Of a stretch of DNA of 64,000 nt, positions 425 to 45,027 are shown piece after piece (positions within the stretch are counted from its first letter, which is position 1; the number at the start of each line of letters is the position of its first letter). The notes beneath the pieces are model-generated. The model was not told the DNA's origin. It worked only from the letters and a program-made list of their open reading frames with translations, and made no database searches. The stretch is from the NCBI GenBank assembly GCA_951406725.2, contig OX597826.1, positions 5,890,001 to 5,954,000 on the forward strand, written 5' to 3'. The stretch comes from Octopus vulgaris. Taxonomy: Eukaryota. Both the position numbers and the translations under genes were made by a program.

Positions 425-465
<41 letters not shown>

Positions 466-1730: not shown

Positions 1731-1776
<46 letters not shown>

Positions 1777-2792: not shown

Positions 2793-4221
2793 TATATGTG
2801 TGTTTGTGTGCATGAGTGTGCGTGTGTGTGTGTAGTGTGTTAGTGCATGTGTGCGTGTGTGCGCGCGTTTGATTGCATATATATGTGTGTATTTTATACC
2901 TACATCTGTGGTGGCTGTCTCTCGTTGACGTGTATGACCACTGAGAACATATTTTTGTCCAGAAATAACCAAGGGTAAGTTCTTTAGATTCTTAATGAAA
3001 TCGGTGATATTTCAGAATTCTTTTTTTCTGTTTGCAAAATCAAGGGGCCGGGGAACTTTTACACTGACGTTACCCACCTGAATTTGAAAGGAAGGTAAAT
3101 GATTGTTTCTTTAAATTCAAAAAGTTTTCTGAATCTATTTTATTGAATCTATTTGTATTAATCTGTTTAAAAGCCCATTACATAGGAGAAATACAGTGCT
3201 GCTAGAAGAAAAATTTATATCATAACAACGAAAACACTTTTTATAATACTCTTCCTAAGTTCCACACTTTAATTTATCTCGGATCGCCGAACTCTGTGCT
3301 AGACACATGTCGAAATAAAGATTAGGGATCCCTCACACCTAGCTGTCAGATGACTGCTGATGATATAGAGGTCCCCCGTTCCTTGACACCTTTTCATTTA
3401 CATCATGCGGGGTATCCAAAGAAAATCCCTACTCTTTACAAAGCAGGCTTGGTAGGGCTGCCGCTTTACTCACCGACAGGTAGTGCTGAATTACATGTTG
3501 CCAGTAGTACAAAGAATGACCAGATATATTTTGTGTATGTATACGTACGTGCTTGCATGCTTGTGCATGTGTTTACTTTTTGTAGTAAAGGGAATCTTTA
3601 AAAGTAGACTCACCTTAAGTTCCAAGTTTTCGAAAAGTTATTAGTGACAAGCGAAAAAAAAAAAGACATTTAAATTTTTTCAGAAAATTATGGAGAATCA
3701 AACAAAATGAGAAGGATTAAATATAACTGAATAAACTACTTAAAATGTTAAACACCGTTAAGCTTGTAGATTACAAAATAAAAACAAACAAGATGAACAA
3801 ATTTTTCATGTGTTGGAAATTAAAGACGAAATATTAGAAACTCAAGATCGTTACTTTCCGCACGCAAGGATATATCAGGAGCAGAAATAAAATCTATGCG
3901 TTTAATAATTCAATAATTAAATGAGGATGCAAAAAAGGATCTGTATGTGAATGTATTAATTTAATATCAATATTGAACTTAAATTAAAAGCTTTTTACAT
4001 CGGGGAACAAATGTATTGCCCCGAAATCCTATATCAAATTTCTCACGAAATCTTTAAAGAAAATTATCACCCTCTTTTAAAAATCTTGAAAAACCGTATT
4101 TCGAATATATTTCAAACTCCAGCGAGCTTCAGCATAAGGATACACACGCGCACACACACACGCACACACAAACACACACACAAACTTACACACATACCTT
4201 TAATATCTCCATCATCTATCT

Positions 4222-4625
4222 TTTATTTCTTTCAGTCATAAGCCTGCAGCCATGCTTAGGCGTTGCCTCAAAAGGGCTCCTAAAAACTTCGCCGAAATAC
4301 TTATTTTCTTAAATCCGGTAATTTTTATAACGCTGTCTTCTTGCTGAACCGTTAACATACGAGATCGTATAGTTGCCAAGAACGGCTGGCCACCAATGGT
4401 ACAGAACAAACAAACATAAAGACTCATACATACTTAAGTACGTATATATAACATATAATATGTACACACAAACACACTCATACATATGAATTTATGTATG
4501 CATACGACGGGCTTCTTTCAGTTTCCATCTTCCAAGTTCACTCACAAGGCTTTCGTAGGCCCCGCTCTAAAGTAGGAGTGAACCCCGTACTACGTGTTTG
4601 TAAAGTAAACTTCTCACCATACAAC
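4222..4625 (-). mobile_element. SINE family B copy, degenerate
   Basis: TTTCAGTCAT..GCAGCCATGCT tail and TACGACGGGCTTCTTTCAGTTTCC..CTCACAAGGCTTT segment shared with copies at 43340 and 52398. Confidence 0.75.
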
Positions 4626-4725
4626 AATGCATATAAAGATATATACGCGTGTAATACACGCACATGCAAAAGCATGCTCACACACACATTATACATATAT
4701 TCGTGTTTATATTGCTATAAATCTA

Positions 4726-5292
4726 TTGGGTTGCTCGGAAAGTTCGTGCCGATTTTTAAAGGAAAGAAAAAGGTCAATAAATACTCGTGCCATTACATTT
4801 TTAATCAACCAAACATGAACCATTTTGTTGCACAATGCGTCTCCGCCTTTCCTATAACTTGAAAGTACCCTCTTCCCAGAGCTGTGGTGGTTTAATGGCA
4901 AAGAATTCATCAAGGTATCTTTTTACGTCATCCAAGGAATTGAAATTTTTACCATTAAGACTATTCTGCAGAGATCTGAATAAGTGAAAATCCGAAGGAA
5001 TAATATCTGGTGAATATGGAGGGTGCGGTAACACATCCCAGCCAAGCCTCAGCAATTTTTTTGGTTCCCAAAGCATCGAGTGCCGAAAATGAACTTTCTT
5101 ATTTTCCATTTTAAAGGGTAACAGTATTAACACAGATGAGAAGGGACATAAATCTCCTTCCAGGAAAAGATAGCTTAAACTGTGCTATAAATGGAGGTGT
5201 AGTGAAATCCTATTTTATGGACGCAACCATGTGCTAAAATAAGTCGAAGGTTAAGCTACTATAAATCGGCACGAACTTTCCGGACAACCTAA
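4726..5292 (-). mobile_element. internally deleted mariner transposon (mellifera-like)
   Basis: ~30 bp TIRs TTGGGTTGCTCGGAAAGTTCGTGCCGATTT / AAATCGGCACGAACTTTCCGGACAACCTAA, TA on both flanks (4724-4725, 5293-5294), transposase remnant inside. Confidence 0.95.
4852..5109 (-). pseudogene. mariner transposase remnant (N-terminus fused to C-terminus)
   Basis: MENKKVHFRH start joined to LGWDVLPHPPYSPDIIPSDFHLF, a variant of the mariner YSPDLAPSD motif; premature stop. Confidence 0.93.
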
Positions 5293-6300
5293 TATAATGT
5301 GTGTACTTGTATCCCAACTACAATTACATGTAACGTTAGCGTTTTTGTTTTTAATTTCAATTTCGCCATTTTCTACCCAACACACAACAGTGCTGCATCC
5401 TACTCAAAACGACGAATATATATATGCGAATACAATTATATATTTAACATGTGAAACAATGTAATTGGTACTGAGCCATTAAATACAACAAATGCTCTTA
5501 TAGGTCATCGGCAATAAATCTTTTTTGTATATGTTTACTAATCTATCATGAAAATAAAACTTTGAAAACTTAGTATAAAAAATACCACAAAATCAATTTG
5601 GTTCAAATTATTTGCCATTTTAATATCTTTATTGCAAGTTTGTTTATTTGTTCGTATAATCGACAGACACTAAAATCACCCCTGATAAATTCTTAATTAA
5701 GATGCCTCATAAACTAATTCGCTGTTTGGTTTATGATTATAATATGTGCCTCATGATCTTATTTTACATTAGCACTTGTATATATGGTTTGAAAATATCT
5801 ATCTCGAAATTGAATGGAAAATGATGTGTTACAATATTAATTCGTTATGTGTGCTTGCATCAAATATATTATTCTATAGTAAATGAGACGTTGTACTAGC
5901 GACTGCAACACATAGGAATGCCTGATATGATTGTTTATTAAAGATGTACGTAGGATTGGAATATGGCCAAGTATGTTATTATTTTAGTTAATATTTTTAT
6001 AAATATCATTACTTTAATGCAAAATATTACAAATGAATCATAAGAATCTAATACAATTTGTTGTTTATTAAATCCTTGGATCTGTATTTTCAAGTATATT
6101 GTTTAGATTAATCGGTCTTGCGTTCACATCTTGATTGTTGATTTCACTACGTTTCGGCTGTGTAGGCTCCAACCTTTTTCAGGTATCTTGTGATTCAGAA
6201 GACACCTGAAGGATTCTGGAGCGTACAACAACCGAAAAAACGTGAAAGTAATATTCAAAATGAGGATACCAGCTCGACTAATGTAAAGATGTCCATAATA

Positions 6301-6846
6301 CGAGGGTGAGTCAAAAGGTAATGCCATTTTGTTTAGGACAGGTATAATTACCAACACAGGAACATGTATCATACATCAAAATGAAGCTGGTCCTTTGTGG
6401 ATCATATCCCTACTTTTCGACATGTTCACCGTTTCTCTCAATAGCGATGTTCCACCTTCGAAAGAGAGCATGTATCCCTGCTCGGTAAAATTCTGTTGAC
6501 TGTTCTTTGAGCCACTTCTTCACAACAGTTTTCACTTCCTCGTCAGACTATCATCTCTTCGGTTCCATGAAAGAGGGTTTAAGAGGAAAACATTATTCCA
6601 GTGATGAGGAAGTGAAAACTGTAGTGAAGAAGTGGCTCAAAGAACAGTCAACAAAATTTTACGGGGCAGGGGTACATGCTCTCATTCGAAGATGAAACAT
6701 TGCTATTGAGAGAAACGGTGACTATTTTGAGAAGTAGGGATGGGATCCACAGAGGACCAGCTTCATTTTGATGTATGTTACGTGTTCTTGTGTTACTAAT
6801 TATACCTGTCCTAAACAAAATGGCATTAATTCTTGACTTACCCTCG
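6301..6846. mobile_element. palindromic mariner-derived MITE built from two 3' ends
   Basis: arms ~6301-6544 and ~6602-6846 are reverse complements; ends CGAGGG..CCCTCG flanked by TA; + strand encodes SDYHLFGSMKEGLRGKHYSSDEEVKTVVKKWLKEQ..NGDYFEK*, a mariner transposase C-terminus. Confidence 0.93.
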
Positions 6847-7317
6847 TATAAATTCCTCATCTCAGAAACATAGAATTGTATATTTTTAGTAGTAGATGTG
6901 TTTGTTATGCAGGATTACTTATCATTTTCGAAACCTGGTGGGTTAGAGTTATTAAATGAATAATGAAATCATCCCGGGCAACTCACATTTTCGTTGGCGT
7001 CCGTCAAACTCGTAAGGGGAGATGTTGTCGTGATAGATATTAACACCTCTGTGTGTTTAAAAGATGTACTTGTCGAATTCTCATAAAGGTTAACGTTATC
7101 GTTGAGACAACAGAGAGCCTTTGAAGTCTCGCGTCGCAGAAGTCGAAGAACGTTGTGTGAATACACTGCTTTACCTCCTCTTCGTTAAATCATATATCCA
7201 AATGGAAGGATATAAATCTTTTCCTCAAAACATGGGGGTGGATTTATTTTCAAGCTAACCTGCATATATATTTGGATATGGCTGTAAAATGCGATTTAAC
7301 TGGAATATTTTCGTTAG

Positions 7318-7479
7318 GTGTAGAACAAGATGGTGATCGTTTTTCTTTGTCTAAGAAACAGAAGACTATGGTCAATGATTCACTTTATGTTATTGCATGG
7401 TATTTAGCATCGTATGCGATGCTCGTGGTTATTTCTACATCTTTTTCTTTGCCGATGTATCTGGGAAACGCTGAGTGCA
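7318..7479 (+). CDS. candidate exon A of an unknown gene (hydrophobic signal-peptide or TM segment; ATG at 7368)
   Basis: acceptor TTTTCGTTAG, donor GCA|GTAAAT, 162 nt fully open, phase 1 exit; MVNDSLYVIAWYLASYAMLVVISTSFSLPMYLGNAEC; no homology recognised. Confidence 0.3.
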
Positions 7480-7814
7480 GTAAATACAATTCTGAATGCT
7501 TTGGTTTTGTTTATCATAAACAGTATATTGATTTGTTGTTGGATTAGAAATCACCATAGGTACTTAATGCATCTTTCAATCATCGTAATCATGTTATAAG
7601 ACTCATAAAAAACTTTCATTGTTATCCACTTTCACATAAATATATGCTTTGAATTATATTCAAGATACACGGAATGTTTATTTGATGTTGTTACAGAGCT
7701 GTCATTGCGGTTATTCTATTATTCTCTTATTCCATTATCCTACGAACAATTTCAGTGCTAGGAGCACAGTAATGTTGGAGAAACTCTTTGAAAATTTTAG
7801 TCCAAGACAGATAA

Positions 7815-7978
7815 TTATTCTGTCATTTTCTTTGCCGAACCGCTAAGTTATGGGGTGTGAACAAGTTTATCAAGTGGCGGGGAAAATGAACACGAAAATA
7901 CTTATACACACCAGCACGTGCATTCGCAGACATACAAACGCAAACAAAAACGCGCGCCCCCACACACCCACACGTGCG

Positions 7979-8017
<39 letters not shown>

Positions 8018-8075
8018 AGGTCCCGGGTTGAGTCGGGGTTAACCACAGTAAATAAGGTACTCAATACATAGCAGA

Positions 8076-8127
<52 letters not shown>

Positions 8128-8295
8128 ATATATACATATATATACACACACAACGGGCTTTTACACTGTTTCTGGGAATCAAATTCACTCACAAAGCATT
8201 GGTGGCCTGGGGATATAGTGAATGTCACTCGCCTAACGTACAGCTAAGTGGAAATGAACTCCAAAGTATTTGGTTAACCACACTGTCATGCATGA
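7815..8295 (-). mobile_element. SINE family B copy with internal (TA)n and a nested fragment at ~8017-8080
   Basis: TTTGCCGAACCGCTAAGTTA and ACGGGCTT..TCACTCACAAAGCATTGGT segments. Confidence 0.75.
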
Positions 8296-9339
8296 ACCTC
8301 AATTATTTTGCTTAGGGCACTGAAAATCTTCATTTTATTTCTTTGTGAGGTGTTTCTGTTTTCAGAGGGAATTAGAGTACAAATATGTATGTCATAACTG
8401 TATCGATGAAATATTTTATCCACATCATCTTTATCAATACACTTACAAAGTTCTCAATAAGTACAGATTTTACACTAAGAACACACTCAAAATAGTTAAA
8501 GTAAATCTGAACACAGCATTATTATATAATAGTCATGCTAAAAGATGTTATATGCATAGTTTGGGTTCTAAATACATCTATATATTATCAGATCGCATGG
8601 CTGATAAAATAATGAAAACACATATTAAATTTTTCCTCAGATCAGATTATCCTAAAATATTGTTATGTAGTATAACCAAGCTTTCGTAAGACGCATTCGG
8701 AATGACAAACGGAAAGACGTAGGATGTCTATACGAATAAATATTAACCACAGAAATAGAAAAATAATAAACTATAATCATCTTTACAATGTAATTATAAC
8801 CCAATTCCCTCAAAACAGGCTGTCAATGGAAAGCCTAAGAATTCAGATATAAGAGTAATTACAATTCCATTACGTAACTGAAATATACTTGGTACCTAAA
8901 AGAGTGAGTTAAAAGAAATTACGAGCATAATAATACGAAGTTTTGCAGCAAAGGCAAAGTCATGCAAGTGTCATTTAGGCTCAATAGAGAAGCTGAAATT
9001 ATTAACATCGCGTTTAACATCTTAAATAAGAAAGAAGCAATTACACGCGGTTTGCACAGAAATACATTTAAATTGAAACTTACAAATACATTACTGTTCG
9101 CTTTCAATAATCTTAAGCATAAAATTGTTACTAGGCGTTCCGTGTACGAAATTTGACCCTGAAATATTTGTGCATGTAATGAGTAAATCGGAAAAATTTA
9201 ATTGAGTAAAAAGGTGACGATAATTATTTCCCTCAAAGTTGCACCCCTTCATGAAACCTGTTTAACATAATTAAAATCTGCAGAGGGTGGGTTTTTCAAT
9301 ATCGTTCCATAAAATCGAAGTGTATTATCGTCGAATACG

Positions 9340-9550
9340 ATATCTGTAGCTTCATACGGTTTCTGTGGCGTATGTGTTCCCCGCAGCTGGAAGGGACGCC
9401 AGTCCATCGCAGCGTTACCCAAACAACAGGAAGGAAGAGTGAGAAAAAGTGGTGGCGAAAGAGTACAACAGGGGTCGCCACCACCCCCTGCCGGACCCTC
9501 GTGGAGCTTTAGGCGTTTTCGCTCAATAAACACACACAACGCCCGGTCTG
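9340..9550 (-). mobile_element. SINE family C mosaic copy, 5'-truncated
   Basis: body matches 50200-50310; tail GACGCCAGTCCATCGCAGCGTTAC matches 17196-17219. Confidence 0.8.
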
Positions 9551-9944
9551 AATATAAGTCTGCACTGTAACACATAGAGATTTAATTGATGTTGTAAGAC
9601 AAGAGTGTTCTCTCCAAGTAGTTTGTTTCCCGTTTAAAGAAACTTATAAGCAATATCCGAGAAAACTGCGGATATCATTTGACTTTCAGTTTTACAACCG
9701 GGCAATTTGAATACCCTCAGTTAAACATGTAGGTAATTAAGTTGTAATTACAATGCAAATAAGGAATAAATATTTTGTTAATAAGGAAATGCTGTTCCTT
9801 AAATTTACGAAACGATTTCATCATACGTACATACATCAGAAGAGAAAATAGTGAGCTATCTGCATATGTTGTTGCTAACCTCTTTAGTGATACTGTTAAA
9901 TTTATGATATAAGGCTTTGAGGGGGTCGAATCATTGCCATAAGG

Positions 9945-10112
9945 GACAAAATGTTTAGCGCAGTTTCTTCTGGGTTTTGAGATCGGAATTCAAATACCGA
10001 CGAGGTCACGTTTGATTTTAATCCTTATAGGGTTGATAAAATGAAATGAAATAAATTAAGTACTGGTGTCAATGTAATCTCTCTTAAATTACTGGCTTGA
10101 GCCAAAATTTGG
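9945..10112 (+). mobile_element. SINE family A, degenerate
   Basis: AAATGTTTAGCG..ATTCAAATACCGACGAGGTC..GGGTTGATAAA..GCCAAAATTTG. Confidence 0.65.
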
Positions 10113-10569
10113 AAGATATATATTTACAAACATTAAATGTAACAATTCTAATCCTTGTCACTTTCATCCATCAATTGAAATTCTATATCTGCGCGAGGGA
10201 AGATATGGGTAGGGTAAACATGAGGGAATGAAATTAGTTGGTATATTTGCATCACACCAAAAATAACCTTTGAAATGAAAAAAAGAAAAAAAAACATTCG
10301 TGAAGACAAGGAGTAAGAGAAAGATAAAAACGGAATTAACCAGATTCACTAAATTATATTTTGCAATACAAATTGAACATTAGACAGACCATTCGAAACA
10401 AATTTGGCGTATAAACAAAACACACGATCGATAACGTTTACATTACAAGTGATACATTTAATTTCTAATTAAAATTTTCTTTCATATGAGCTACGTCGCA
10501 GCATATCAGCAAATAGACTCCACTCTGTTTGCATATAAGTAGACTAGCTTCTTTTCACTCTTTTTCCAG

Positions 10570-10650
10570 ATGATCTGAATATAGTATACAATAATGACGG
10601 AATATATTCTAATATATTCTCGGTGATTCCGAAGAGAGCTGTCTCACCCG
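10570..10650 (+). CDS. candidate exon B of an unknown gene
   Basis: strong acceptor CTTCTTTTCACTCTTTTTCCAG; donor CCG|GTCAGT (alternative CAG|GTAAGA at 10666); 81 nt, open only in phase 1: NDLNIVYNNDGIYSNIFSVIPKRAVSP. Confidence 0.35.
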
Positions 10651-10784
10651 GTCAGTAGCATTCAGGTAAGAGTTATTTAACACCTGACGCAAGTGTGGTA
10701 TATAGAGAAAAGAAATACATTATGCCTCTGTGACCCGATAAAGGTTACATGTTTACGCAAAGTTTAATTTTCAATATATGTGTG

Positions 10785-10840
<56 letters not shown>

Positions 10841-10859
10841 GGTAACACATTGAGATTAG

Positions 10860-11290
10860 ACATGTGCCGAGCCCATTAAGAAATGTAATTGGAAAACGAA
10901 AGCTCCTGTCCGTTAGAAGGAAATGTCTAGTGAAAGGAGTAGTTTATAGAGCCAAGGTGCAAGTGGAGGCTCATCGGAATACAAGACATACACAGGGGCT
11001 TCAGAAAATTCATTTAAATCAAGATTTTATTCTCATAAGAATTCTTTTAAATACCCAGAGAACAGAAAAAAACCAGCCTAGCAAATATGCTGAACTAAGA
11101 AAAGGAAGCCCCACCTTTCAACGTGACATGGAGCATTCTGGACAGGGCGGCACCATACAGGCATGGAGCTTACAAATATAATTTCAAGTGCAGGCTCTGC
11201 TATAGAAAAATGCACATATTATTCAAAGACAATAATTCTTGAATCAAAAGTGAATTAATGAACTTATGTAGGCACACGCTAAATTTAAAT
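10860..11290 (+). mobile_element. Penelope-like element 3' remnant, GIY-YIG endonuclease (frameshifted)
   Basis: across frames: CPLE.KCLVKGVVYRAKV..YTGASENSFKSRFYSHKNSF..VTWSILDRAAPY..CRLC..EK..LNQ.SELM..CRH, the Cys-flanked PLE GIY-YIG pattern; starts next to (TA)n. Confidence 0.85.
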
Positions 11291-12294
11291 GTCGAATATA
11301 AATATACCATATGGATAGAGTATATATTTTGTATTTTGATTTTTTGATTTTGATTTTGACTCTTCAGCGCTACGACGGACCTATAGCAAAGTCTTATTGT
11401 TTCACATATATATTAGGAAAAACCTACAAACTTGTTTTCATGTTATTGTATTGCATAAGATTACCTTGATTATTTATATTACCTTGATTATTTATAAATG
11501 ACCCAAAATAGGATGTTATATTTTATTTTATATGTCTTTCGTATATATTTTTATTAATGCACCCATTTTTTAAAAGCAATGTTTTTTTTTTTTAAAAAAG
11601 CAATGTTGTCAAATTTAGAATGTTTATATAAGTTTGTATATACAAAGCATATATATTTGTAAGCATGCGTATCTGTGTATGTGTAAGTGAAAGTATGCTT
11701 GTGCTTAGCACGCATACACACGACGTATGTATATGTATCAATTCAAACTTGTGTATGTATACTGGCCTCTATAGATGTCAATAATATCGCTACAAGTTTT
11801 CCCCACCCCTCCTTCGTTTCTTTTTCTCTTTTCCTTTCTTTCGTTCCCCCTCTTGCTCAGTATATGAGAATTGCTACATAGATGAATTTTAGCTTGCGTG
11901 CGAGACGGTTGCGTGAATATATGTACACATGCTTTTATGTGTATAATTTAGATTCATATTCATACGTCTGTATATGTATGTATGGCGTTTACGCGCATCC
12001 TTTGTGTATGTTGATATATATATGTGGATTTTAATATAAATATGTATTGCAGTATTTATAACAGGTTTAATTTCTATGCTTAATTTGTACTGTCTTCATT
12101 AACGGCAATAGGTTTTTCCTCGGATTTTATAATTTTTATAAGTTTTTTATATATATATATATATATTTTTGACCTTTTTGTTTATCGCTCGAAGATTGAC
12201 CGTTTTTTCTAAAGGGCCAATCAAACAAGTCCATTTCTTTTAAAGGTGTAGCGTTTGTAAGATATAGATTGAATTAATATATATGTTCCATTCT

Positions 12295-12346
12295 AGCAAA
12301 ACTGTCTGATGAACGGCAACGAGAAACTAGAGTAACAGATTTTGTT
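12295..12346 (+). ncRNA. type I hammerhead ribozyme motif in a probable Penelope pLTR fragment (~12170-12370)
   Basis: stem I AGCAAAA-CTGT/ACAG-A-TTTTGTT, CTGATGA 12306-12312, short stem II CG-GCAA-CG, GAAAC, loop TAGA, GTA triplet 12332-12334. Confidence 0.65.
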
Positions 12347-12369
12347 GAATTTTCTGCTCTTAAAATAAA

Positions 12370-12370
<1 letters not shown>

Positions 12371-12429
<59 letters not shown>

Positions 12430-12444
12430 TATATATATATATAT

Positions 12445-12478
<34 letters not shown>

Positions 12479-12545
12479 AATATATATATATAATATATAT
12501 ATATATATACATATATATGTGTGTGTGTATGTATGTATGTTTGTA
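12371..12545. repeat. (TA)n compound microsatellite, one of more than 40 (TA)/(TG)/(TACA) tracts in the window
   Basis: direct reading. Confidence 0.95.
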
Positions 12546-13450
12546 TATCTTTTTTCTTTTATCTTTTAATCTTTTAATAGTTTCTGTCATTAGACTGCTG
12601 CCATGCAGGGGCACTGCTCTCTCTCTCTATATATATATATATATATGTGTGTGTGTGCGTGTGTGTGCAGGTGAGTCTTTGTGATTACTCTTTGTGCCTC
12701 ACCAGATGACAAGCACAAAAACAAATGATTTGATTATCTTTATGTTTTAACAAAATAGCGGTTCAGCATAAATGAACGATGGAACAAGTACCAGACTTCA
12801 TATTTAAAATCGCGGGTAGGCTTGATCGGCCAACACATTCATGGTGGTAATCCTGCTCAATCATATTTTAATGACAACACAAGGAAAATACGAAATATGT
12901 GGAATTATGTGGAATTACTAATTTATCTACTACTTTATTTCAAAAATAGCACAATAAACACTGTCAGTCACTAACAGAATTAGAAATAGGAAAGCCAGTG
13001 GGATCAAAACGTGATTATTTCGACAAAACATTGAGATGAAATGTAGCTTATATATTCGCCCGAGTAAAAATGAAGTACAAAGTAAAACGAAAGGAAATTT
13101 TTAAATGTAAACGTAGAGATACGTAAATAATAATACACCATGATTATATTTCCAGCCGCCTACGTTTCATCATCCACGCATTTAAGATGGCGTCAGTTAT
13201 ATAATTTCCGTCTAATCGAAACGATTGCAAAATTTAACAAGGATTTAGAAGAGAATGCATTAAGTAAATGGAACTGTTTGTGGAAGAACTAATAAATAGT
13301 TATTTGTAGAGTCATATGTTAGCTAAGAGTTTACATGAGGCAAGACATTCAATGCTGTTGCTGTCAGAATCTCGCTCATTCATGTTTATCGCAAATTAAA
13401 CCATATGTATTTCTGTTTGTGTCTGCCACATTCTTTGGCTTTTGTTTCAG

Positions 13451-13492
13451 AAATCACTTGCGGGCGTATTATGAAGAAACCTATCTTATTGT
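13451..13492 (+). CDS. candidate exon C of an unknown gene
   Basis: acceptor TTCTTTGGCTTTTGTTTCAG, donor TGT|GTATGT, 42 nt, phase 1-1: EITCGRIMKKPILL. Confidence 0.3.
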
Positions 13493-13549
13493 GTATGTCC
13501 ATATATATATATATGCGAGTGCTCGTGTGTGTGTGTATATATGTATTTA

Positions 13550-13591
<42 letters not shown>

Positions 13592-13662
13592 CATATATGT
13601 ATATAGACAGATATATATATACATACATATATACACATACATACATACATACATACACACAC

Positions 13663-13720
<58 letters not shown>

Positions 13721-15005
13721 GTATGTATATATATATACACACACACGCAATCATCCTGTGTTTTTCTTTTTTAAGAGTAATAATGTGTGTCATATATGCT
13801 CAGCAACTTCATCTCTGTCCTCAATTACGATTAGATTACTTTAACCGAATTTCTATGTAAGATACAGAAAAGATGTTATTTTGATTCCCTAGATAAGATT
13901 TTGGATACTGCATTATTGCTAAATCTTGAAAATTCTGAGTAAGTTATGACGTTTAATGTTTGGAAAGTTAAGGATTTTTTAGTAATATCAGAAAATATAA
14001 CGAATTGGACTTGACTTAATTAATCTGTATATTTCATTTGAATGCCTGCTACGTTATTTAACCATAACGCAATAACTAAAAACGCGAAGCCACTTATGAG
14101 ACATTGATAGAGCATCAGAAAATGATCTTCAAAATATACCATAATTTTAGAGAAACATCTAATGGCTACATATATGATGCTTTTGCCTTTTCTAATAATT
14201 ATGCCAGAAATAATCTAGCGCTGAGGTTTAACTCAAACATAGGAAGAGTTTACCATATCTGGATTACGTATGTAATATTTTCAGTGGCATATCTTCTGCA
14301 TTTACCCTAATTTCAATACCAAAACAAATACATATTGAAAATGTAGATAATAGAAAATTTGATTCATAAATCCTATCCTAAAGTATGAAATTAGCGCAAC
14401 ACGCTCGTTTTATTATTTACAGAGAATGCCTGCCATTTAATAACAATAAGCTGAGGACAAATGAATCGCTCTTTAATTTAGACAACGAAGGCATAAATGA
14501 TACATTTCTGCTATGGTGGAATCTTGTGTATTTAGATAAAATTATTCGATCATTGTTTTAAATAGTTTCTACAAATTTTGAGTAAACGTATATACTATGT
14601 ATTTGTTTATCCTTATTTTCTTCGCATTATTCGTACACGTATGTAGTTGCTCTCTATATTTTTATAAACAATGGCCTGATCTGTGTTAAAACAGTTATGA
14701 TTATGGATCACAATGCAGATAACATTTTTTATCTCAAGACTGTGTGCCTCGTTTGCTGATTGTGTGGATGTGGCTAAGTATATGTAAAGTATATGTTATC
14801 GAAAAATAAGTAAACGTAGATGTTAATTTTCTGCATGTTTATTTTGTCTCTCTGTATATTGATTTTAACATCAACTAATTTTGAATGCGTAAATTCCTTT
14901 CAGTCAATAACTCCTTGCTGAGACGCATTAGAAATTTTTTTCGTGTTTCATGTATATCTAGTTAACACATAAATTGGTCTTAGCTTTTGTTTATTTTTTT
15001 CATAG

Positions 15006-15057
15006 CAGAGCCTTTTTCATCTATTTTGTCAAGAATCAATAGATCAAGAAGTTTACG
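15006..15057 (+). CDS. candidate exon D of an unknown gene
   Basis: acceptor TTTGTTTATTTTTTTCATAG, weak donor ACG|GTTGTG; SEPFSSILSRINRSRSLR. Confidence 0.25.
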
Positions 15058-15175
15058 GTTGTGTATAACCGCATCTATTTCTTTCCCACTAGACATTCTG
15101 TTTACTTTATATTCGATGTATCACGATCGACTACTGTTTATAGTTTGCATTCAGATTAACCTGCCATGTTTTCAG

Positions 15176-15197
15176 CGTCTGTGCAGTCACAGGTTAA
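15176..15197 (+). CDS. candidate terminal coding exon E
   Basis: acceptor ATTAAC..TGTTTTCAG after a 118 nt intron; VCAVTG* in phase 2. Confidence 0.2.
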
Positions 15198-15529
15198 CTA
15201 GCGGCCTTGGAAGATGATAATGATGTGGTTAATATGTGGACAATTCTTTCATTTTTATATATTTAAGATTCAAAACTTCCTTTGATTTATTTCATTCGCG
15301 CATGTCTTATATCACCTGATAATTTTTAATAAGTTTCGTCAAACACACACAGGAAAAAATGCCACACTTTTAAGACGCACCCCTGAACAATGTGTGTAGC
15401 ATGTTACCATCTCATGCTCAAACATACATGAAGAGACAACTGTGCGTGGGCGTATGTGTCTGTGGGTGCATTTGTGTCCGCGCGCTTCTTCGCTGATGTA
15501 TATACGAGTGAATAATACGAATAATAGAA

Positions 15530-15725
15530 AGGAAGCAGGGAATCGTAAGCACACCGAACAAAAAGGCTTTAGGGCATTTCGTTCATCTGTACGTTCTGAG
15601 TTCAATTTCTGCCGAGGTCAACTTTGCCTTTCATCCGTTTCGGGGTCGAAAGAATAAGTTCTATTCCAGCACTGATCGACTCACCTCTATCCTTCAAAAC
15701 TCATGGCTGGTGCCAACATTTGAAA
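15530..15725 (+). mobile_element. SINE family A copy
   Basis: GTTCTGAGTTCAATTTCTGCCGAGGTCAACTTTGCCTTTCATCC..GGGGTCGA. Confidence 0.8.
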
Positions 15726-17061
15726 GCAGCACAAATAACAGAAGTATAATCGTAAGAGCGGTGTATCAAGAACGAAATACCGTAAATAGTATCTTCTACG
15801 CTGAGTTATAAACACACTCATCTTTCTCCTGTCTTTAGAAATGGGATGAAGTGATTGGTCTGGTGGAAACTTGTAATCAACGAAGCTGTCTCTCACAATT
15901 TGCGATGTACAACATATATATATATATACACACACGAGTAGTATTATGAACAGGGAACGCTCTCAAAAAGTGCTTATTTACACATCCATAATATGTGTCT
16001 GACACCACAATGTACTTCTTAACATATTCAACAGACACAAGCACATATATTTTTTTAGGGCGTCAAAATAATAAAATAAACAGAAACATTGACCGTCTAC
16101 ACGAAGTCACAATCGCAAGTACATTTTTGCGCCCGAAGTATAGACGTTTGCTTATATATATCCTGATAACATATCTCACTCGTTCTTTTGAGTAGAGACA
16201 AAATGGAGATCTTCTTTATGAATTAGTAATGATGTACTTGTACTTTCGAACATCGTTTGCCTTTGCCCTTCCTAACACCTCCTCTCTCAATATATATGCT
16301 TACATATATATGTGTATATTATTGACACACACACATATATAAAGAGTGTAGGAAAAAGAGGGTAAGATAGACATGTATACACGCATAAACACATACACAC
16401 ACGCACAGACACACATGTATATATATAAATATATATATATATATGTACATGTTATGTTGTATCTTTGAGTGGATTTATATATTTTATATGTGCTTAATGT
16501 TATATTGCTACTTCACATGCGTGCGTGAAAACCTGTCTGAATGTAAGTGTTTCCCATACACATTACATTGAGATATAAACACCTCTTGATTGCTTGAGAC
16601 ATATAAAAAAAAGTATGACTGTCTGGGTTCAAAAAAATGAAGAACTCTATTAATAAATCAGTAATAAAAATGTCACACAAAAGCTAAACCCCGAATACAT
16701 GCCACATGTTATCTCTTTACGAATCCATAAACCTGTTGAAACTAATTTAAAACACATAACTCACACTTTTCTCTTTGGTTTGGTCTAACCTCTTCGTTCG
16801 TGCTTATTTTCTTTTAAAATTTCCTTCTTGATTCATTCTTTGATGTTTTTGGGGGTTTTTTGGTTTTCTTTGGCTGATATATATCTTTTTCAATCGTTTT
16901 CGATTATTTTTCTGTTTGAAATGTTCTTTGGTTGGATAGAGTCTGGTAGCAAATTCAGAGGGTATGTTTAGATTTCACATTCTGCCATATGCAACACAAA
17001 CGTTTAGGAACATTACCAAAATTCTTCTCAGGTGCGTACGTGCTTATGTATATTTGTATGT

Positions 17062-22748: not shown

Positions 22749-22967
22749 CCAAACAAGAAAGCACAAAAAGACACAACGCGAGGACGTGGAACAAATATAG
22801 TATTATTGGACTCTCGGGAAAGAAGGGAAGAAGTAGGGTTTAACGTTTCGAGCGGAGCTCTTCGTCGGAAACATAGGAGAAGGAAAGATCCAGAGAAGGG
22901 AAGACAGAGGAAAAAAATCTCCAACGTTACACACGAGGTCACACACATGCGCATACAACACACATTC
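22741..22967 (-). mobile_element. Penelope pLTR-like fragment in (TA)n with a minimal hammerhead-like motif (22838-22872)
   Basis: minus strand GTTT-CCGACGA-A-GAGC(TCC)GCTC-GAAAC-GTT-AAAC; flanked by (TA)n. Confidence 0.6.
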
Positions 22968-24081: not shown

Positions 24082-24170
24082 CAATTATCTCTCTAAGTGT
24101 TTATCTATCTCTGACCCCTTTATTCAAGAATATGTGTATTTAATTCATATATATATATATATATATGAAT

Positions 24171-24689
24171 TAAACAACAGGTTGTAGGGATCGCCACGTG
24201 GATAAATCATTTGGTAGGACAGAAAGAACAAAACATAATATGCGGGAAAATAGACGATAGCACGACAAACGGCAAAACAGGACAAACGCTATATACACGA
24301 CTCATCCGCAGCTGATTTCCTCATCAGTCGGAGTTCCCTGCAGCTTTACGTGTATATTTTTGGATTTCTCGCTTTTGTTTCTGTCCTTGTTTTCGTTCTT
24401 GTACACATTCGTTTGCCTTTTCCAAGAGGCTTATTGCTTTAAGCTTTCGTCTCTGGCAGCCCTCGGATTCGAGTAGTCTTGGAGATAAGGGACCGAAACT
24501 ACAAGGACCTCCCGGACTCCGACTGACGAGGAAAGCGGCCGCGAATGATCGATGTATCTTGTTTATGTCCTGTTTGTCGTGCTATCGACTATTCTTCTGC
24601 ATATTATGTGTTGTTAGTTTCCGTTTGTTGTGTTCTTTCTGTCCTACATTTGATTTATCCTTGCGGCGTTCCGTACAACCTGTTGTTTA
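24171..24689. mobile_element. foldback element with ~165-175 bp inverted arms (inverted Penelope pLTR-like or MITE)
   Basis: arm 24171-24334 (TAAACAACAGGTTGTA..TTTCCTCATCAGTCGGAGT) is the diverged reverse complement of 24516-24689. Confidence 0.85.
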
Positions 24690-25185
24690 CTTTGTTAAAA
24701 AAAATATCACCTGAATATTATGTACGACTTTCACCCTCTGTTCCTCGGTTTTCTCCCTTATTCCTTCCTTCTCTCTCTCTCTCTCTCTTCCCCTCCCCTC
24801 GTCCTTCAGTCCCACTTTCTCTGCCTCTCTTCCCCTCCCTCTCGTTCTTAAGTCCCTCTGATTCCTTTACCCTCTATCATATTCCTTAGTCCCTCTGCCC
24901 TTTTCATCTCCTCCCATCTCCTACCACGTGATCGCTGTCCGGATACGGTATTGCTATTTTTCGACCAGCCACCTTTCAGGTTGGTCACATTCCTCTGTCC
25001 CGTCGCCCGATCTGTTAAGATTTTCCACTTTTCCTTTGTGCCAGCTTACTTTGTTCGTCTGATAGACGAAATACTATTTTTGTTATTTATTTATCTTGTA
25101 AACGGAAAGGCGTTTACCAAATGTATATGTATGTCTTTTTCTGTTGTACTTGCATTTGTATTTCATAACGCTATATTCGCCCTAG

Positions 25186-25713
25186 CTGGCAGGGGTCATT
25201 GCCTACCCTTTGCAAATATAAGGACACAGAAAATGTGTCAAAGCCGACAGGAGACGTCGATGTTTCCTGACGGGACAGTCACATTGAGTTGATAGTATAC
25301 GACCACTATATCGCTCCACCACTCATGTCTCTCTGAGACATTTAGAAATTCAATATTTCTAATTTCAGTGATCAGTAAATAAATTTTACTGAAAATAGGA
25401 TATATTTGCGAAGAGGCTGCAGTCATCTCAGCGAGCGAGACCGACTACCCTGGACTGACGACGAGCAATAGATTTAGAAACATATGTCTTCAGGTGCTTA
25501 GTCCCATCTGGCGGGGGTGATTGCTTCCCCTTTGCAAATATAAGGACACAGAAAATGTGTCAAAGCCGACAGGAGACGTCGATGTTTCCTAGGGATAAAT
25601 GGCGGTGCTGTAATTCCCTTACGGGACTGTCACGTTGAGTTGACAGTATACAACCACTATATCGCTCCACCACCGCTCATGTCTCTCTGAGACGTTTAGA
25701 AATTCAATATTTC

Positions 25714-25718
<5 letters not shown>
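25186..25718 (+). mobile_element. retrozyme-like structured tandem repeat (~1.6 units, period ~322 bp)
   Basis: 25186-25364 repeated at 25508-25718; many hairpins; hammerhead between the copies; ends in (TA)n. Confidence 0.7.
25449..25494 (+). ncRNA. type I hammerhead ribozyme motif
   Basis: stem I CCTGGA/TTCAGG, CTGACGA 25455-25461, GAAAC 25477-25481, palindromic stem III ACATATGT, GTC triplet 25486-25488; stem II poorly paired. Confidence 0.75.
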
Positions 25719-25787
<69 letters not shown>

Positions 25788-31047: not shown

Positions 31048-31095
<48 letters not shown>

Positions 31096-31166
31096 GCTAA
31101 ACATAGAGGGGCTAAACATAGAGGGGACAAACAAGGACAAACAAACGGATTAAGTCGAGCGTAATA

Positions 31167-32336
31167 AGACAAGGTAGAAAATATTAAAATAATTTCATCA
31201 TGAAATGCATTTTGCAACGGTTAGTTACGACTTTTTCGACTAAGTGTAAAAGAAAGCTGGATATTAATTAAGAAGAACAACTTAAATGAAATGTCTTGTA
31301 AATATTTCCATAGTCTTCAAATAGGTAGGACATTTTCCTTTCTTTCTGTCTGTCTGACTGTCTGTCTCTGTCTGTCTCTGTCTGTCTCTGTCTGTCTGTC
31401 TGACTGTCTGTCTCTCTCTGTCTCTCTCTCTCTCCCTCTCTCTCTGTCCCTTTGTGAATGCTCGGTAGTTGTAGATTTGAAGAAAAAAAAAGTATTTATG
31501 GGTGTGCAGAGAAATATTTGGTTCTGAAGTTTGATGGGTTAAGCAGCAGCTGCTGATGAAGGAGAAGGCGAAGAAGGAGGAGGAAAGGAAGAAGAAGAAG
31601 AAGAAGGTGAAGAAGAAGAAGAAGAAGAAAAAGAAGAAGAAAAAGAAGAAGAAGAAGAAGAAGAAGAAGAAGAAGAAGAAGAAGAAGAAGAAGAAGAAGA
31701 AGAGTGGTATGATCCAGTAGAATCTACTTTAATGGTAACGTGACTTAAAGTGACCTGTTCTAGAAGAAATAGCAGAAACTGTTCTAAATAAATCCATGGG
31801 TAGTAACCGTTCTTAATATATCTATCGTTTTTAATATTTGCGTGGGTATTGTTCTCAGATCATCTGTGGTGGAAGCATTCAAAAGGGGTTTACATTTTGC
31901 GATAACATATGATCCTTTTTTAATGCGTTGATTATAGGTTTCATTGTCCCCAAAGTTATAGAGGAGTAACATTCTAGAGATGGGTCGTTCATTAGTGGCG
32001 CAACTGTCAATGTGTTCACTTAATGCTATTTCTATGTCTCCTTTATTCTGGGAATTATGTATGGTCATCCTCTGGCGTAAACTGTTTTTGTTTGACCATT
32101 GCATTGTTCTCGATAATCTTAGACAAACAAAAAAAAAACGAAAATGCTCTACCTATTTGAAAACTGTCGAAACATCTACAAAACATTTATTTTAATTTTT
32201 TCTTCAATTGAATTGATTTTATGCTTAATTAATACCCATCTTAGTTTTAAGAAAAAGTGGAAAAGGTTGAAACATGCACTAAACGTTACAAAATGTATTT
32301 CATGATAAAATTATTTTAGCATTTTCTAACTTGTCT
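31167..32336. mobile_element. ~1.17 kb segment bounded by ~110 bp diverged inverted repeats
   Basis: 31167-31272 (AGACAAGGTAGAAAAT..ATTAATTAAG) versus 32224-32336 (CTTAATTAAT..ATTTTCTAACTTGTCT). Confidence 0.7.
31561..31703. repeat. (GAA)n microsatellite
   Basis: direct reading. Confidence 0.97.
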
Positions 32337-32355
32337 CTCTCTCCCTCTCTTTCTC

Positions 32356-32425
<70 letters not shown>

Positions 32426-33071: not shown

Positions 33072-33559
33072 TCGTTCTTGTTACCTAAAATTATTTTTGG
33101 TGCATCACATCTCTTCGATCTTCGTTCTCGTATCTTTCTAAAAGTATTCTTTTTATTGTGGCATATCTTAGTTTTGAAGTTTCTTCTTTTGAAAATATTC
33201 CTGCTCAGTTTAGTTAATATACACTTTCATGTACCCACAACGTAATGGGTTATGCTTTGAGCTACAATTGTATAGGTGTTCGATTAAATATTATAGCCTT
33301 GAGTTAAAACGGTAACTTTTAAGACCGTTTGTGAGAGAAGATCACTCAAATGTTCACCATTTAAAGACAAATAAACATTGCAGATCTATTACGACAATAT
33401 CTACGTAGGAAGCATCTACAATCGCGTCTCACATAGAACGCTTTGGATTATTATCTCCTTCTACGGTGCTACACAGAAAGCGTCGGACATAAACACACAC
33501 ATATACAAGCACATATATGTAAAATGCAGTACGTGTGTATGTGTGTGTATATATATATA

Positions 33560-33790
33560 TTTCTTTTCTGCCCACAAGGGGCTAAACACAGAGAGGATAA
33601 ACAAAGACAGACAAACGGATTAAGTCGATTACATCGACCCCCAGGGCAAAACTGGTACTTAATTTATCTACCCCGAAAGGATGAAAGGCAAAGTCGACCT
33701 CGGCGTAATTTGAGCTCAGAATGTAACGGCAGACGAAATACGGCTATGCATTTCGCCCGCCGTGCTAACGTTTCTGCCAACTCGCTGCCT
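33560..33790 (-). mobile_element. SINE family A, near full length
   Basis: reverse complement of 49515-49730, including head GGCAGCGAGTTGGCAGAAACGTTAGCACG. Confidence 0.9.
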
Positions 33791-33859
33791 TGTGTGTATA
33801 TATAAATGTGTGTGTATGTCTGCGAGCGTATATAATATATATATATTATATTATTTTAT

Positions 33860-34290
33860 CCTTTTATTCTTTTACTTGTCACAGTAATTGTGACTGAGGC
33901 CATGCTGGAGCATTGCCCTTTAGTCGAAAGATATAGATTCCTGGACTTATTCTTTGTAAGCTTGATACTTATTCTATCGGACTTTTTTGCCGAACGGCCA
34001 TGTTACGGAGACATAGACACACCAATATTGGTTATGAAACGATAGCTGAGGGACAAAGATAGACACGAACACACAAATATGTACACACGCACTCACACAT
34101 ACACACATGTATATATCTATCTATATATATATATACTACACGCTTCGTTCAGTGTACATCTATCAAATCCACTCACAAGGCTTTGGTCGGTCCGAGGCTA
34201 TAGTAGAAGACACTTGCCTGAGGTGACACGCAGTGGAACTGAACCCGATATCATGTGGTTGGAAATCAAGCTTATTACTACACACCCACA
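33860..34290 (-). mobile_element. SINE family B, near full length
   Basis: collinear with 52398-52768. Confidence 0.9.
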
Positions 34291-35459
34291 TATAATATAT
34301 ATATATATATGTATATGATATTTATATTATATACCTGTATATATTATATATAACAAATAATATGTTACACTCACTAAAGCACACAATCACTTGCGCGCAC
34401 ACAGAGTGTCAAACACATACACAGCGTACATCAACAGATGCAATTCATGGACGTCACATCAGATCACTTGGTGTTTTTATTCTTACAACGTAGATTCTTA
34501 TGAGGGTGACCCGAGCCGGGTTGATCAAACTTAGGTCTTTTCTTAAAAGGAGTTGTCCTGCGCCCACCGATCAATACTCGGAAAAAAACAAGAGAAGTTT
34601 TCGTTCATTTGCGGGAAGCTGGTAAAAGATTGTCAAAAAATTACTACTTAGTCGTTTAAACTATCAGCAATTTTTAATAATCTTAAATAAATGTTGTTCG
34701 GTCTCAGATTGGCTACTTTTTATGTATCCTTCTATTTCTTGGAACGGCTCTATGTATTGCTAGAAAAACAATAGCGCTGGAGGGCATTCATGTTTTCAAG
34801 TTGTAGTTGAGAAAAAGGTTTGCTGTGAAAAAAACCCACTTAAAGCCATCTGAATACAGGAAAAGGGTTACCTGTTTCATGAAGATTAGATCCCCATCCG
34901 GAAATGCCGACATCATGAACAACGCTCAATGCGTTTTGAATACTGTAAAGGCTATAAGACGTAACATGCAGAGCAGCAACTGAGACTACGAAGTCGTAGC
35001 TAATAGGACGTGAAATAGTGGGTGTTCTACCTACGTCCTCACGTCGAATTACATCTAACACCTATAGGGCCTGGTGATGAAAGATCCAAACAAATTAATC
35101 CAGGCCTTGGCAATGGGTATGGATGTTGTAGTCACCACTATGAGACTGTCCATGAATGGCGACCTCCCCTGCTAAAGATGAGGATAACTGCTTTAAGATT
35201 AGAAAAAAAAGCTCGTGAAAAAGCTGAAGCAACCTTTTCAACCGGGGCTGATCTAGTTCTATTCAGTTGCGTAAGGCACACAAGAACAGATTGCCGAAAG
35301 TTAATGTTATGTCCCATGTAACATGAAAACCAAGTTTCCCGAAACTTGCGTGTGACTCCAGTGATATTGATGACATGCCATCCCACATCATTGAACAGTG
35401 TTTAGGAAAGATGCTAGAGAACAATACTGTCTAAGGATAGTTGCTGCTAGAAGGCCAAA

Positions 35460-37430
35460 TGTGTGGGAGCGGCATTCGATTCCTTGCCATACTTTGAAAA
35501 TGTATGAAATAGTCTCGAGTAGAGTAGAAAGAATGGAACAAAGATGCAGTGTGTTTATCAGAAAATGGCTTGGTCTGCCGAAACCACTGAATACAACTGC
35601 ACTATATGGAAAATCCGTGCTGCAACTACCAATAACATCAATCGTGGAAGAATATAAGGCAGGAAAGGCAAGGACAGTAATGATGCTAAGGTATTCAAAA
35701 GATCAGAGCATCCGGGAAAACCCTCCAAAGGTACGAACAAGGAGGAAATGGAAGGCGGAAGAGGCAGTAAACAAGGCGATCGGAAAACTAAGGCACGCAG
35801 ATATAGTCGGAGCGACGCAAGAAGCTAGAACCGGCCTAGAATCGCAAATTTCAGGCCATTTTGCAAGAGCAGTGTAAAATAGATGAAAGAGGCAGTGGTA
35901 TACGAAGTGAGAAAGGAGGAAGAAAAAAGGCAAAATGTACATTTGGTGCAATGCAGTCAACAGGAACAGTGCCTGAGATGGGAGGAATATGTGATCAACC
36001 GTAGAGTATCATGGAAAGAATTTGGGCTTGGGAACAAGCAAGAACATCCTTCCTGATCAAGTCTACCTTCGACGTTCTACCCTCACGGGCGAACTTAGTC
36101 CGGTGGAACATAAAAACAACCGATGACTGTAGATGCGGAGAGAAAGCGACAGTTAGACATGTTCTGTCAAGTTGCAGACTAGCACTAGAAAGATATACAT
36201 GGCGGCACAATCAAGTCCTCGGCGTCATAAGCGCAGCACTCAAGGAGAAGATCGAGAGGTACAATAGGGTAGAGTACCCAAAAGTAGAAAAGCGCAGGAA
36301 AGTATACTTCCACAAGGAGGGGAAAATATATAAAACCAGGCCTACAAGTAAAGTATACGAGATAGACGAAAGATGGAAGGGTTACTGGGAGGTGGCCACG
36401 GACTTGGAAAGACAAGTAATATTTCCACTAATAAAAACAACAAAAAGACCGGATTTAGTCCTATGGAACAGAGACCGGAGAGTATGAATTTTACTAGAAC
36501 TGACAGTACCTTGGGAAGAGAGCATCGGTAATGCAGAGGAATGAAAGGAGAAGAGGTACGAAAAGCTAATCGAAGAATGCAGAGAACAGGGATGGAATGT
36601 CGAATATTATCACCTGGCAGTTGGGGCTAGAGGCTTCATTGAAAGGAAAATGACAACGCTTTTCAAAAGAAGATTTGTTTTTTCTAGCTCCGAGCTGCGA
36701 AAACTAATAAGGAGAGTACAGGACGCGGTCGAAAAAGTCAGCTTCTATATATAGCTGAAGTGGGAAGACCGAAAATGGCTTGAAAGTCATAACATGCCGG
36801 CGGGAAATAACATCACTAGGTGAGACAAGCTGACACTAAATCAGCTTCGCTGACTGACAGGTGCCAGTCGTTTAGACAATGCGCGGGCTAAAACTATGTG
36901 CCTTCATTAGTCAGTTAAGGTGAAACAGTGTCACGTGACAACTTGCTGGGGCTGCCTGCTGGAGTCTGAGGGCAGGTATTTTAAGGGAAAAATTTGACAA
37001 GACAGTCAGTCGCCGGCTGACACTCGCTGGCGATACATTGAAGAGGCCAGGGAACAGAAGAAAGAAGACATGCACACAACACCAGAGCTGAAGACACCTC
37101 CGAAATAGGGGGGGGGCGCCACGTCAAATCGGTGGAGGAGTAGGGGCCGAAACCGGATGTAGTTCCTCCAGATGATATACTGAGCTAACTGGATCCTATA
37201 AACGAGATGTGGTGGTAGCAGACTACGAAACACGGTTGTAATCTCATTACTCACTACGTGTTGGGTCCTGTTGAGGAAGATATGAACTGCTCTGACTGCA
37301 ACACCAGGTCCGTACTGTTTGTCAAGCTCAAAGATCTTCCTTGGATCGCATGTGCCAGATGCAGAGCTGCGTTAGAGCCGTGGTGGAAGCTAAGAGCGGT
37401 TACTTTGCTCTAACTGTTATCTCCCAGCCA
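35460..37430 (+). mobile_element. 5'-truncated HERO-like non-LTR retrotransposon (RLE type) with long 3' UTR
   Basis: protein motifs as in the next feature; GC-rich non-microsatellite tail 36824-37430; both ends approximate. Confidence 0.8.
35490..36823 (+). pseudogene. RT thumb, CCHC zinc knuckle and PD-(D/E)xK restriction-like endonuclease, disrupted
   Basis: MYEI..RKWLGLP..ALYG..LQLP..RTRRKWKAEEAV; FDVLPSRANL..CRCGEKATVRHVLSSC..WRHNQVL; RPDLVLW..LLELTVPWE..KRY..VGARGF; frameshifts near 35840-36010 and in-frame stops at 36485, 36542 and 36752. Confidence 0.92.
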
Positions 37431-43339: not shown

Positions 43340-43823
<484 letters not shown>

Positions 43824-45027
43824 ATATATATTCTTATATATATAATGCACGTAAAGAACGCGTATACATAGTCATATGCATGTATAGTTATATCTATGGT
43901 AACGCGCAAATTCATTTCGAGAGCACTGTACAAATGAGCTTAAGTGATTCAGATTGAAATGTTACATCGCGAATTAAAATCATTTTGTATAAAATGTATT
44001 TGTTAAGTAGATTGACAATATCTCCATTTTGAAAGTCTCCAGAGAAGACAATGATAGTTAAAGTAGATCTTGTATTTAAGTATGGATGGATGGATGGATT
44101 CATATATGTTTGTATGCTTGTTTATAAGTATGTATGCATATATGTTGTATATATTTGAGTGTGTATTGGTGCGCTCATGTGTGGTTATATAGTGTTAGAT
44201 ATTTATAGTATGCAAATCGGGCCCTCTACGTCTCCCAAACCTGTAGATTTTTTATGTATATAAACATACTGGCTGTCTGTTTCTCTAGGATAGGGTAAGC
44301 CACGTAAACACCTCTGACGAGACCCCAATAAGCTTCGAAAGCAGGATTAAACATTGTTCATCGTTCTTTCGATCTACAGAGAAGTAGTTAAATATTCACT
44401 ATTTATCCACAGCATAGATTATTAATGTATAGTTTCTTATTTGTAATGTAGGTAGCATATTGCGAAAACGAAAATCTGGCTATGTGGTGTTATATTAAGT
44501 TTTAAATATGCTATAGAATGCAGAAGGTGAAAGCACAGTGGGAACTGCAAAAATGCTTTCACTCTTCAAATTATTTGTCGTTTCATCGTAGATAAGAATC
44601 ACCATCATGCAAATTCATGATTTGATAAAACCGTTTGTAAAGCAATAAAATTACACAAGATGCGTTAATAATACTAATAGGAAATAGGAAACGATAAATA
44701 AATGTGCAATTGACTGGAACAATGCCGACTATTCCAAAACTTCATAAAATTTTCTTTGATCACTGAGGAATTAGTCGCTTTTGTAGCCAAAATGTCAACC
44801 AGAGCCGAATGTAATGATAATGGTAGAAGAAAATAAGAGAGAACTTAAGAAAAAAAACTTTTTTCATGAAAATGATGCATAAAAATGCTTACAACAATTG
44901 CCCGTAAACATAAAACCCAATGCCTCAATGAATGTGGCTGGTTGTATATAATTAAGGTATGGAATGTATGTCTGTCTCACTCATCTCTCTCTTTGTATAT
45001 ATATACATAGATCTACACATATATATA

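Follow-up and report, generated by a model that had tools for sequence, protein, structure and literature searches.

An aged one-and-a-half-unit copy of a hammerhead-bearing repeat family in Octopus vulgaris, likely a non-autonomous partner of Penelope-like elements

The region described here lies within a window of 64,000 nucleotides (the whole stretch of DNA that was analysed) and is an aged copy, 1.5 units long, of a non-coding repeat family that bears a hammerhead motif. A full unit of 354 nt, with a GC content of 44%, is preceded on the same strand by a 5'-truncated partial copy that is equivalent to positions 25498-25718 and thus represents about the last 190 nt of the unit (Table 1). 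As BLASTN aligns 25186-25364 to 25508-25718 (E=5e-57), the repeat noticed in an earlier reading, made from the letters alone (the sequence-only reading), is real, but the constant spacing of 322 bp given there holds over the first ~90 nt only. The offset then becomes 351 and finally 354, because the upstream copy lacks 29 nt (within 25588-25620) and a further 3 nt, and the unit length of 354 nt follows from the offsets after these deletions, at the upper end of the ~320-355 nt estimated before. The 29 missing nucleotides make up the AGGGA/TCCCT hairpin region and are situated between short similar words. Both copies terminate at the identical base and differ by 14 mismatches in 189 aligned columns (7.4%). 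Leftward alignment beyond 25185 is not significant, with 139 of 400 shuffles scoring equally well, and the start of the upstream copy is therefore placed at 25176-25186. A gappy alignment back to 25153, by which this copy would begin at the cleavage site, was rejected on the same shuffles.

As had been read from the letters, there is no meaningful ORF, with stops interrupting all six frames of the unit, and the element ends in a TA repeat, here delimited as (TA)33.5 at 25718-25784, which likely was the insertion target. A search for a target-site duplication at the element found none, the longest shared word being 7 nt. No ORF combining reverse transcriptase (RT) and GIY-YIG endonuclease is present in or beside the element, which by this measure is not an autonomous Penelope-like element (PLE). 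BLASTN detected no further copies within the 64-kb window, and exact-pattern scans of metagenome contigs and viral contigs gave 0 matches. The locus shows no sign of a host function, and the copy is decayed.

Table 1 Features of the element and its 3' flank, in positions of the window
Feature	Position	Strand	Basis
Partial unit copy	25176..25364	+	BLASTN pairing, alignment with 25498-25718
Full 354-nt unit, non-coding, highly structured	25365..25718	+	Alignment, folding, ORF check
8-bp hairpin right after the end-to-start junction (25364/25365)	25372..25392	+	Folding
Long stem with the hammerhead at its tip	25401..25542	+	Folding, z=-3.14
Type I hammerhead motif	25449..25494	+	Descriptor, folding, family letters
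Four consecutive hairpins	25545..25647	+	Folding, family coverage
A/C-rich stretch with inner 3' end point (25658-25662)	25650..25680	+	A+C 0.70-0.75, loose ends
Optional 3' tail of two hairpins, with outer 3' end point at its end	25663..25718	+	Loose ends, z=-3.59
(TA)33 microsatellite	25718..25784	.	Repeat finding

The type I hammerhead with a palindromic helix III, proposed earlier to lie between the copies, is found at 25449-25494 exactly as it was written, and is the sole match to a strict type I descriptor on either strand of the 64 kb. A hammerhead as good appeared in 0 of 100 dinucleotide shuffles, and a looser setting yielded an average of 0.01 per shuffle. The Rfam search that the sequence-only reading had suggested came back empty, with no hammerhead family matching the window at the gathering score or at E<=10; the 26 weak matches obtained all belong to unrelated families and mostly fall over simple repeats. 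Helix I is of 6 bp, the core is intact and helix III consists of 2 bp plus the palindromic loop, and the motif is predicted to be cut after 25488. In the window copy, helix II does not fold (0 kcal/mol). When two molecules are folded together, helix III forms an 8-bp duplex of -8.4 kcal/mol, and the folding energy is -22.6 for the hammerhead dimer as compared with -5.8 for the monomer.

The unit as a whole is more stably folded than its shuffled counterparts (z=-4.70, matched by 0 of 100 shuffles; z=-3.44 for the minus strand). A long stem, in which 25401-25435 pairs with 25508-25542, carries the hammerhead at its tip, and this stem and helix I are together predicted to pair both ends of a monomer that extends from cleavage site to cleavage site. 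All seven stem-loops listed in the sequence-only reading were recovered at their positions, each forming a hairpin when folded singly. With one hammerhead and a broken helix II, the window copy is predicted to be inactive and, as this one hammerhead is damaged, the locus is unable to make an RNA circle alone.

The window contains other hammerhead-like motifs and repeats, which are recorded here in their own right. At 24473-24531 (+), hammerhead blocks with a canonical core occur in the non-circular S-G-C order, with a predicted cut after 24478, a helix III of 5 bp, a helix I of 6 bp and a helix II of only 2 bp. This was the only match of a post hoc scan of six permutations (helix I of at least 5 bp, II of at least 2 and III of at least 4), while in shuffled sequences the S-G-C scan reached a helix I of at least 6 and a helix III of at least 5 in 2 of 300 cases, and in 7 of 300 at a looser setting. 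The minimum free energy (MFE) fold of this stretch does not adopt the hammerhead (z=+0.56). Type SGC ribozymes have been found, none of them, according to the accessible text, in the genomes of known organisms (Eckert et al. 2023, PMC10085705). A genomic animal type SGC hammerhead would thus be new if true, and the motif could be more novel than the 354-nt family, but it is doubtful that it is one. It is flanked by an inverted repeat of 72% identity (24168-24334 and 24516-24692), in which each arm opens with one strand of helix I and a CUGANGA core; this repeat has the appearance of two inverted pLTRs from another PLE family. Minimal-hammerhead-like cores at ~22840-22875 (-) and 44307-44355 (+), which fail the strict descriptor, are likely left over from the pLTRs of further PLE families. 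A 122-aa frame at 31784-32152 (-), accompanied by inverted repeats (31061-31355 and 32121-32422), has no Pfam match; it may represent the C-terminal part of a GIY-YIG endonuclease from a PLE. Broken frames of a non-LTR retrotransposon occupy 35395-36487 (+), with a weak zf-RVT match (E=0.003) that is below the cut-off. Two abundant SINE-like families are also present, one at 2554-2797, 33553-33807, 49515-49770 and 60284-60571, which appears to resemble octopod tRNA-derived SINEs, and the other at 33861-34280, 43351-43824 and 52386-52778.

To describe the family, contigs from 4 of 24 runs were aligned to 24900-25718 at 80% likeness, with organisms A, B and D represented by DNA-type runs. These three runs contributed 3068, 2548 and 1191 related contigs, a minority of which belong to an unrelated upstream repeat, whereas locus-specific contigs are single. 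A separate low-copy repeat, with several contigs per run, lies just upstream of the element at 24957-25101. The repeat family is dispersed and multi-copy. In organism B, a locus-specific contig (record 17) runs from the flank to ~50 nt inside the upstream copy, and the insertion is thus shared with this organism.

Of the 123 rows of differences between the window copy and the family, 40 were considered, of which 23 fall within the unit. A letter giving helix II a G-C pair accounts for 98-100% of the depth in all 4 runs at both 25473 and 25475, and at 25453 a letter that renders helix I fully Watson-Crick accounts for 46-71%. The family letters thereby convert 3 of the 3 G-U pairs of helices I and II to Watson-Crick pairs, which argues that the family keeps its hammerhead helices and that the window copy has decayed, even though a C-A mismatch persists at the base of helix II in the 40 of 123 rows considered. 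Elsewhere in the unit, the hairpin pair 25576/25585 varies on both sides, in a phase that the contigs do not resolve, and the AGGGA/TCCCT hairpin loses one pair in 91-98% of the family depth. When set against the MFE fold of the window copy, 5 of the 23 listed variants break a pair, as compared with 27% at random, so that no enrichment indicative of structural selection is seen.

A tandem duplication at a single locus, with a hammerhead-like motif arising by chance, would account for the presence of one copy only in the window and for the lack of an Rfam match. Indeed, a single-copy local duplication had been named in the sequence-only reading as what would speak against its own proposal. The thousands of related contigs with mixed flanks, the family letters that restore the helices and the failure of any of 100 shuffles to yield the motif refute this explanation, and we assign it practically no probability.

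Coverage along the unit is highly uneven. The hairpin region 25545..25647, likely the part that would be recognised by a PLE protein, is the most deeply covered part of the family, and the hammerhead and the junction reach 1.5-4.5% of the depth of the 3' peak (ratios of 0.015-0.045 in the three DNA-type runs). Depth changes in a step at 25507-25525, which falls within the 3' arm of the long stem rather than at the cut site (25488/9). Most family copies therefore appear to be 5'-truncated, a profile that should be taken as soft, because contig depth is no measure for ranking parts of one stretch against each other and such a step could also come from a diverged subfamily. Summed depth over the locus contig ranges from ~6-480 for the hammerhead part to 370-17,000 for the 3' peak, values that vary with or without a correction for contig overlap and serve as loose bounds only, not as copy numbers. 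Run X10, guessed to be RNA and possibly containing DNA, yielded 294 contigs of the family, in which depth over the hammerhead part amounts to 0.6-1.2% of that at the 3' peak; as these contigs show neither level, strand nor circularity, they were counted neither for nor against expression.

The loose ends of the contigs define two 3' end points ~56-60 nt apart, with mixed AT-rich sequence beyond both. The outer one (behind 25365, which equals 25718) is seen in 27, 22 and 18 contigs in runs X3, X4 and X8 with an agreement of 0.48-0.54, and the inner one (behind 25658 and 25662 together) in 45, 51 and 28 contigs with an agreement of 0.50-0.58. The end-to-start junction is bridged at other loci in records 11 and 19, the latter from organism B; record 11 holds 345 foreign bases, begins 33 nt before the junction and continues through the hammerhead. 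The junction recurs, with a family letter at 25367 being carried by 42, 37 and 19 contigs in X3, X4 and X8. Among the joints listed, 6 of 15 connect opposite strands, each in one contig and all in one run; at 80% likeness such joints may derive from other repeats, and these inversions are thus soft evidence. No copy with two hammerheads occurs among the 32 contig pieces listed, which are too short to hold a dimer, 7116 more pieces being in existence. A joint in X4 that goes back 349 was rejected as evidence of a tandem, since it represents a switch between the two copies of the window at the same unit position.

The steep 3' bias should be considered when asking whether the unit has an RNA cycle of its own. 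The element could instead be pLTR debris of an autonomous PLE, with the many short 3' copies representing 5'-truncated insertions of a full-length Penelope element and the 354-nt unit a minor, internally deleted form. The far greater depth of the 3' part and the step at 25507-25525 are as expected from such debris, solo pLTRs that bear dimer-type hammerheads occur widely (Cervera & de la Pena 2014, PMC4209133), and a recent preprint derives retrozymes from PLE termini (Li, Clavereau & Pollet 2026, 10.64898/2026.07.22.740005). Nonetheless, we consider this explanation unlikely: the same junction in many contigs implies that the 354-nt form itself was amplified, the unit carries no ORF, and the loose ends listed behind 25365 (550 rows more exist) have no dominant ORF continuation, their agreement being ~0.5. 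The 64-kb window itself contains no autonomous PLE that shares the ends of the element.

LINE-type priming also gives 3'-anchored, 5'-truncated copies beside simple repeats. The family might be a structured repeat, either SINE-like or derived from a satellite, that a LINE or Helitron mobilises with the hammerhead as a passenger, in a genome for which 893 recently active unclassified SINE families have been described (PMC13282606). Such an origin is highly improbable, as a dimer-type hammerhead and two fixed 3' ends, together with partial tandems and inverted joins, characterise PLEs, and as no tRNA gene or Rfam RNA was detected as a head.

With PLE marks being shown in an element that has no ORF, we regard the dispersed 354-nt family, of which the locus is an aged copy, as a likely non-autonomous PLE partner of the non-LTR retrozyme type. 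Non-LTR retrozymes are low-GC tandems of 150-450 bp with type I hammerheads and form circles in coral, mussel and axolotl, and PLEs have been proposed to mobilise them (Cervera & de la Pena 2020, PMC7229834). The family shares with them a short, non-coding, self-paired and multi-copy unit of less than 50% GC, a type I hammerhead with a palindromic helix III and the lack of LTR-type features; the closest in size and GC are the retrozymes of mussel (350-390 bp) and axolotl (330/350 bp) (PMC7229834). It differs in that it seems dominated by short 5'-truncated 3' pieces, and its likeness rests on sequence-level criteria whereas known retrozymes have also been shown as circular RNA. The retrozyme and PLE-linked reading made previously thus stands at the level of the family, which is multi-copy, with restored helices, fixed 3' ends and a recurrent junction; the window locus itself has one hammerhead and a decayed helix II. 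In the 2026 preprint (10.64898/2026.07.22.740005), a locus is called active when it has two consecutive units with complete motifs, so that the window locus, with its single hammerhead, would not count as active. The same work, which leaves non-vertebrates outside its scope, ties Xenopus retrozymes to pLTRs and regards animal retrozymes as non-autonomous PLE derivatives; among its predicted dimers, 1 of 9 was cleaved in vitro (10.64898/2026.07.22.740005).

The resemblance to PLE termini is equally close. Dimer-type hammerheads have been described in PLE pLTRs (PMC4209133), and PLEs insert preferentially at microsatellites, as partial tandems accompanied by truncated copies in inverted orientation (10.1101/2021.04.23.441226). 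In the anole PLE, reverse transcription starts at two sites inside the RNA, at an A/C-rich stem-loop, which results in an optional tail of 30-40 bp; mainly unprocessed RNA was used in vitro, with hammerhead cleavage dispensable, and the endonuclease favours AT-rich DNA (Frangieh et al. 2024, PMC11167929). Like the pLTRs of endonuclease-bearing PLEs (Penelope/Poseidon, Neptune), the family has partial-tandem and apparently also inverted insertions and an AT-rich target; its hammerhead precedes the two alternative 3' ends by ~170-230 nt, and its inner end is A/C-rich. It differs from them in having no RT/endonuclease ORF and in the 84 nt that lead from the 3' end to the hammerhead, and its tail of 56-60 nt compares with 30-40 bp in the anole PLE (PMC11167929). 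Naiads target (TA)n but are described as lacking hammerheads (10.1101/2021.04.23.441226). That the PLE partner belongs to the Neptune clade is only a guess.

The mobilisation of the family may be pictured as follows, with PLE enzymes and internal priming as the presumed movers, by analogy with the anole PLE. Intact tandem source copies elsewhere would be transcribed, and in the transcripts two hammerheads are predicted to pair via the palindromic helix III and to cut after the base equivalent to 25488. Helix I and the long stem would then hold the ends of the monomer together, making ligation to a circle possible. A PLE RT/GIY-YIG protein would nick TA- or AT-rich DNA, and reverse transcription would be primed inside the RNA, at 25658-62 or at 25718. 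Most cDNAs seem to stop within ~150-200 nt, near the 3' arm of the long stem, a pattern that is seen in the DNA and whose cause we suppose to be incomplete reverse transcription, while a minority would pass the hammerhead and the end-to-start junction and give more-than-unit copies such as the one in the window. This copy has since decayed to one hammerhead with a broken helix II.

As the insertion contains the junction, its template must have had the 3' end joined to the start of the unit, either in a tandem transcript or in a circle. The more-than-unit length had been taken earlier as what an RNA circle would leave, but it fits a circular template and an uncleaved tandem transcript equally well. 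Indeed, 1.5 units alone are no proof of a circle, since partial tandems are normal for PLE insertions and the anole PLE used mainly unprocessed RNA. An uncleaved linear tandem transcript is slightly the more probable template, with an RNA circle close behind. A cleaved linear monomer is not favoured as the main template, as a start of the upstream copy at the cut lacks significance and the depth step is at 25507-25525.

The retrozyme class is already known and the 354-nt family is a further member of it. No description of the family was found in the literature on cephalopod hammerhead ribozymes, and it may sit unnamed in a repeat library. The main text of the non-LTR retrozyme study has 0 mentions of octopus or cephalopods, which its supplement may list (PMC7229834), and the accessible text of the O. 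vulgaris repeat annotation reports many PLE and unclassified SINE families with 0 mentions of ribozymes or retrozymes (PMC13282606). What the family contributes is an example probably from a mollusc, with PLE insertion marks (two 3' ends, a tail, a TA target and apparent inversions) that can be read across many copies. We tentatively suggest a retrozyme family, probably of cephalopods, whose intact sources would make a dimer-gated, stem-closed circle of 354 nt that is reverse-transcribed by PLE-type priming at two sites. The link between retrozymes and PLEs has so far been argued from co-occurrence and from pLTR homology in vertebrates; if this suggestion is true, hundreds to thousands of insertions would record priming on a circle, and would provide, for an invertebrate, an insertion signature that ties retrozymes to PLE enzymes.
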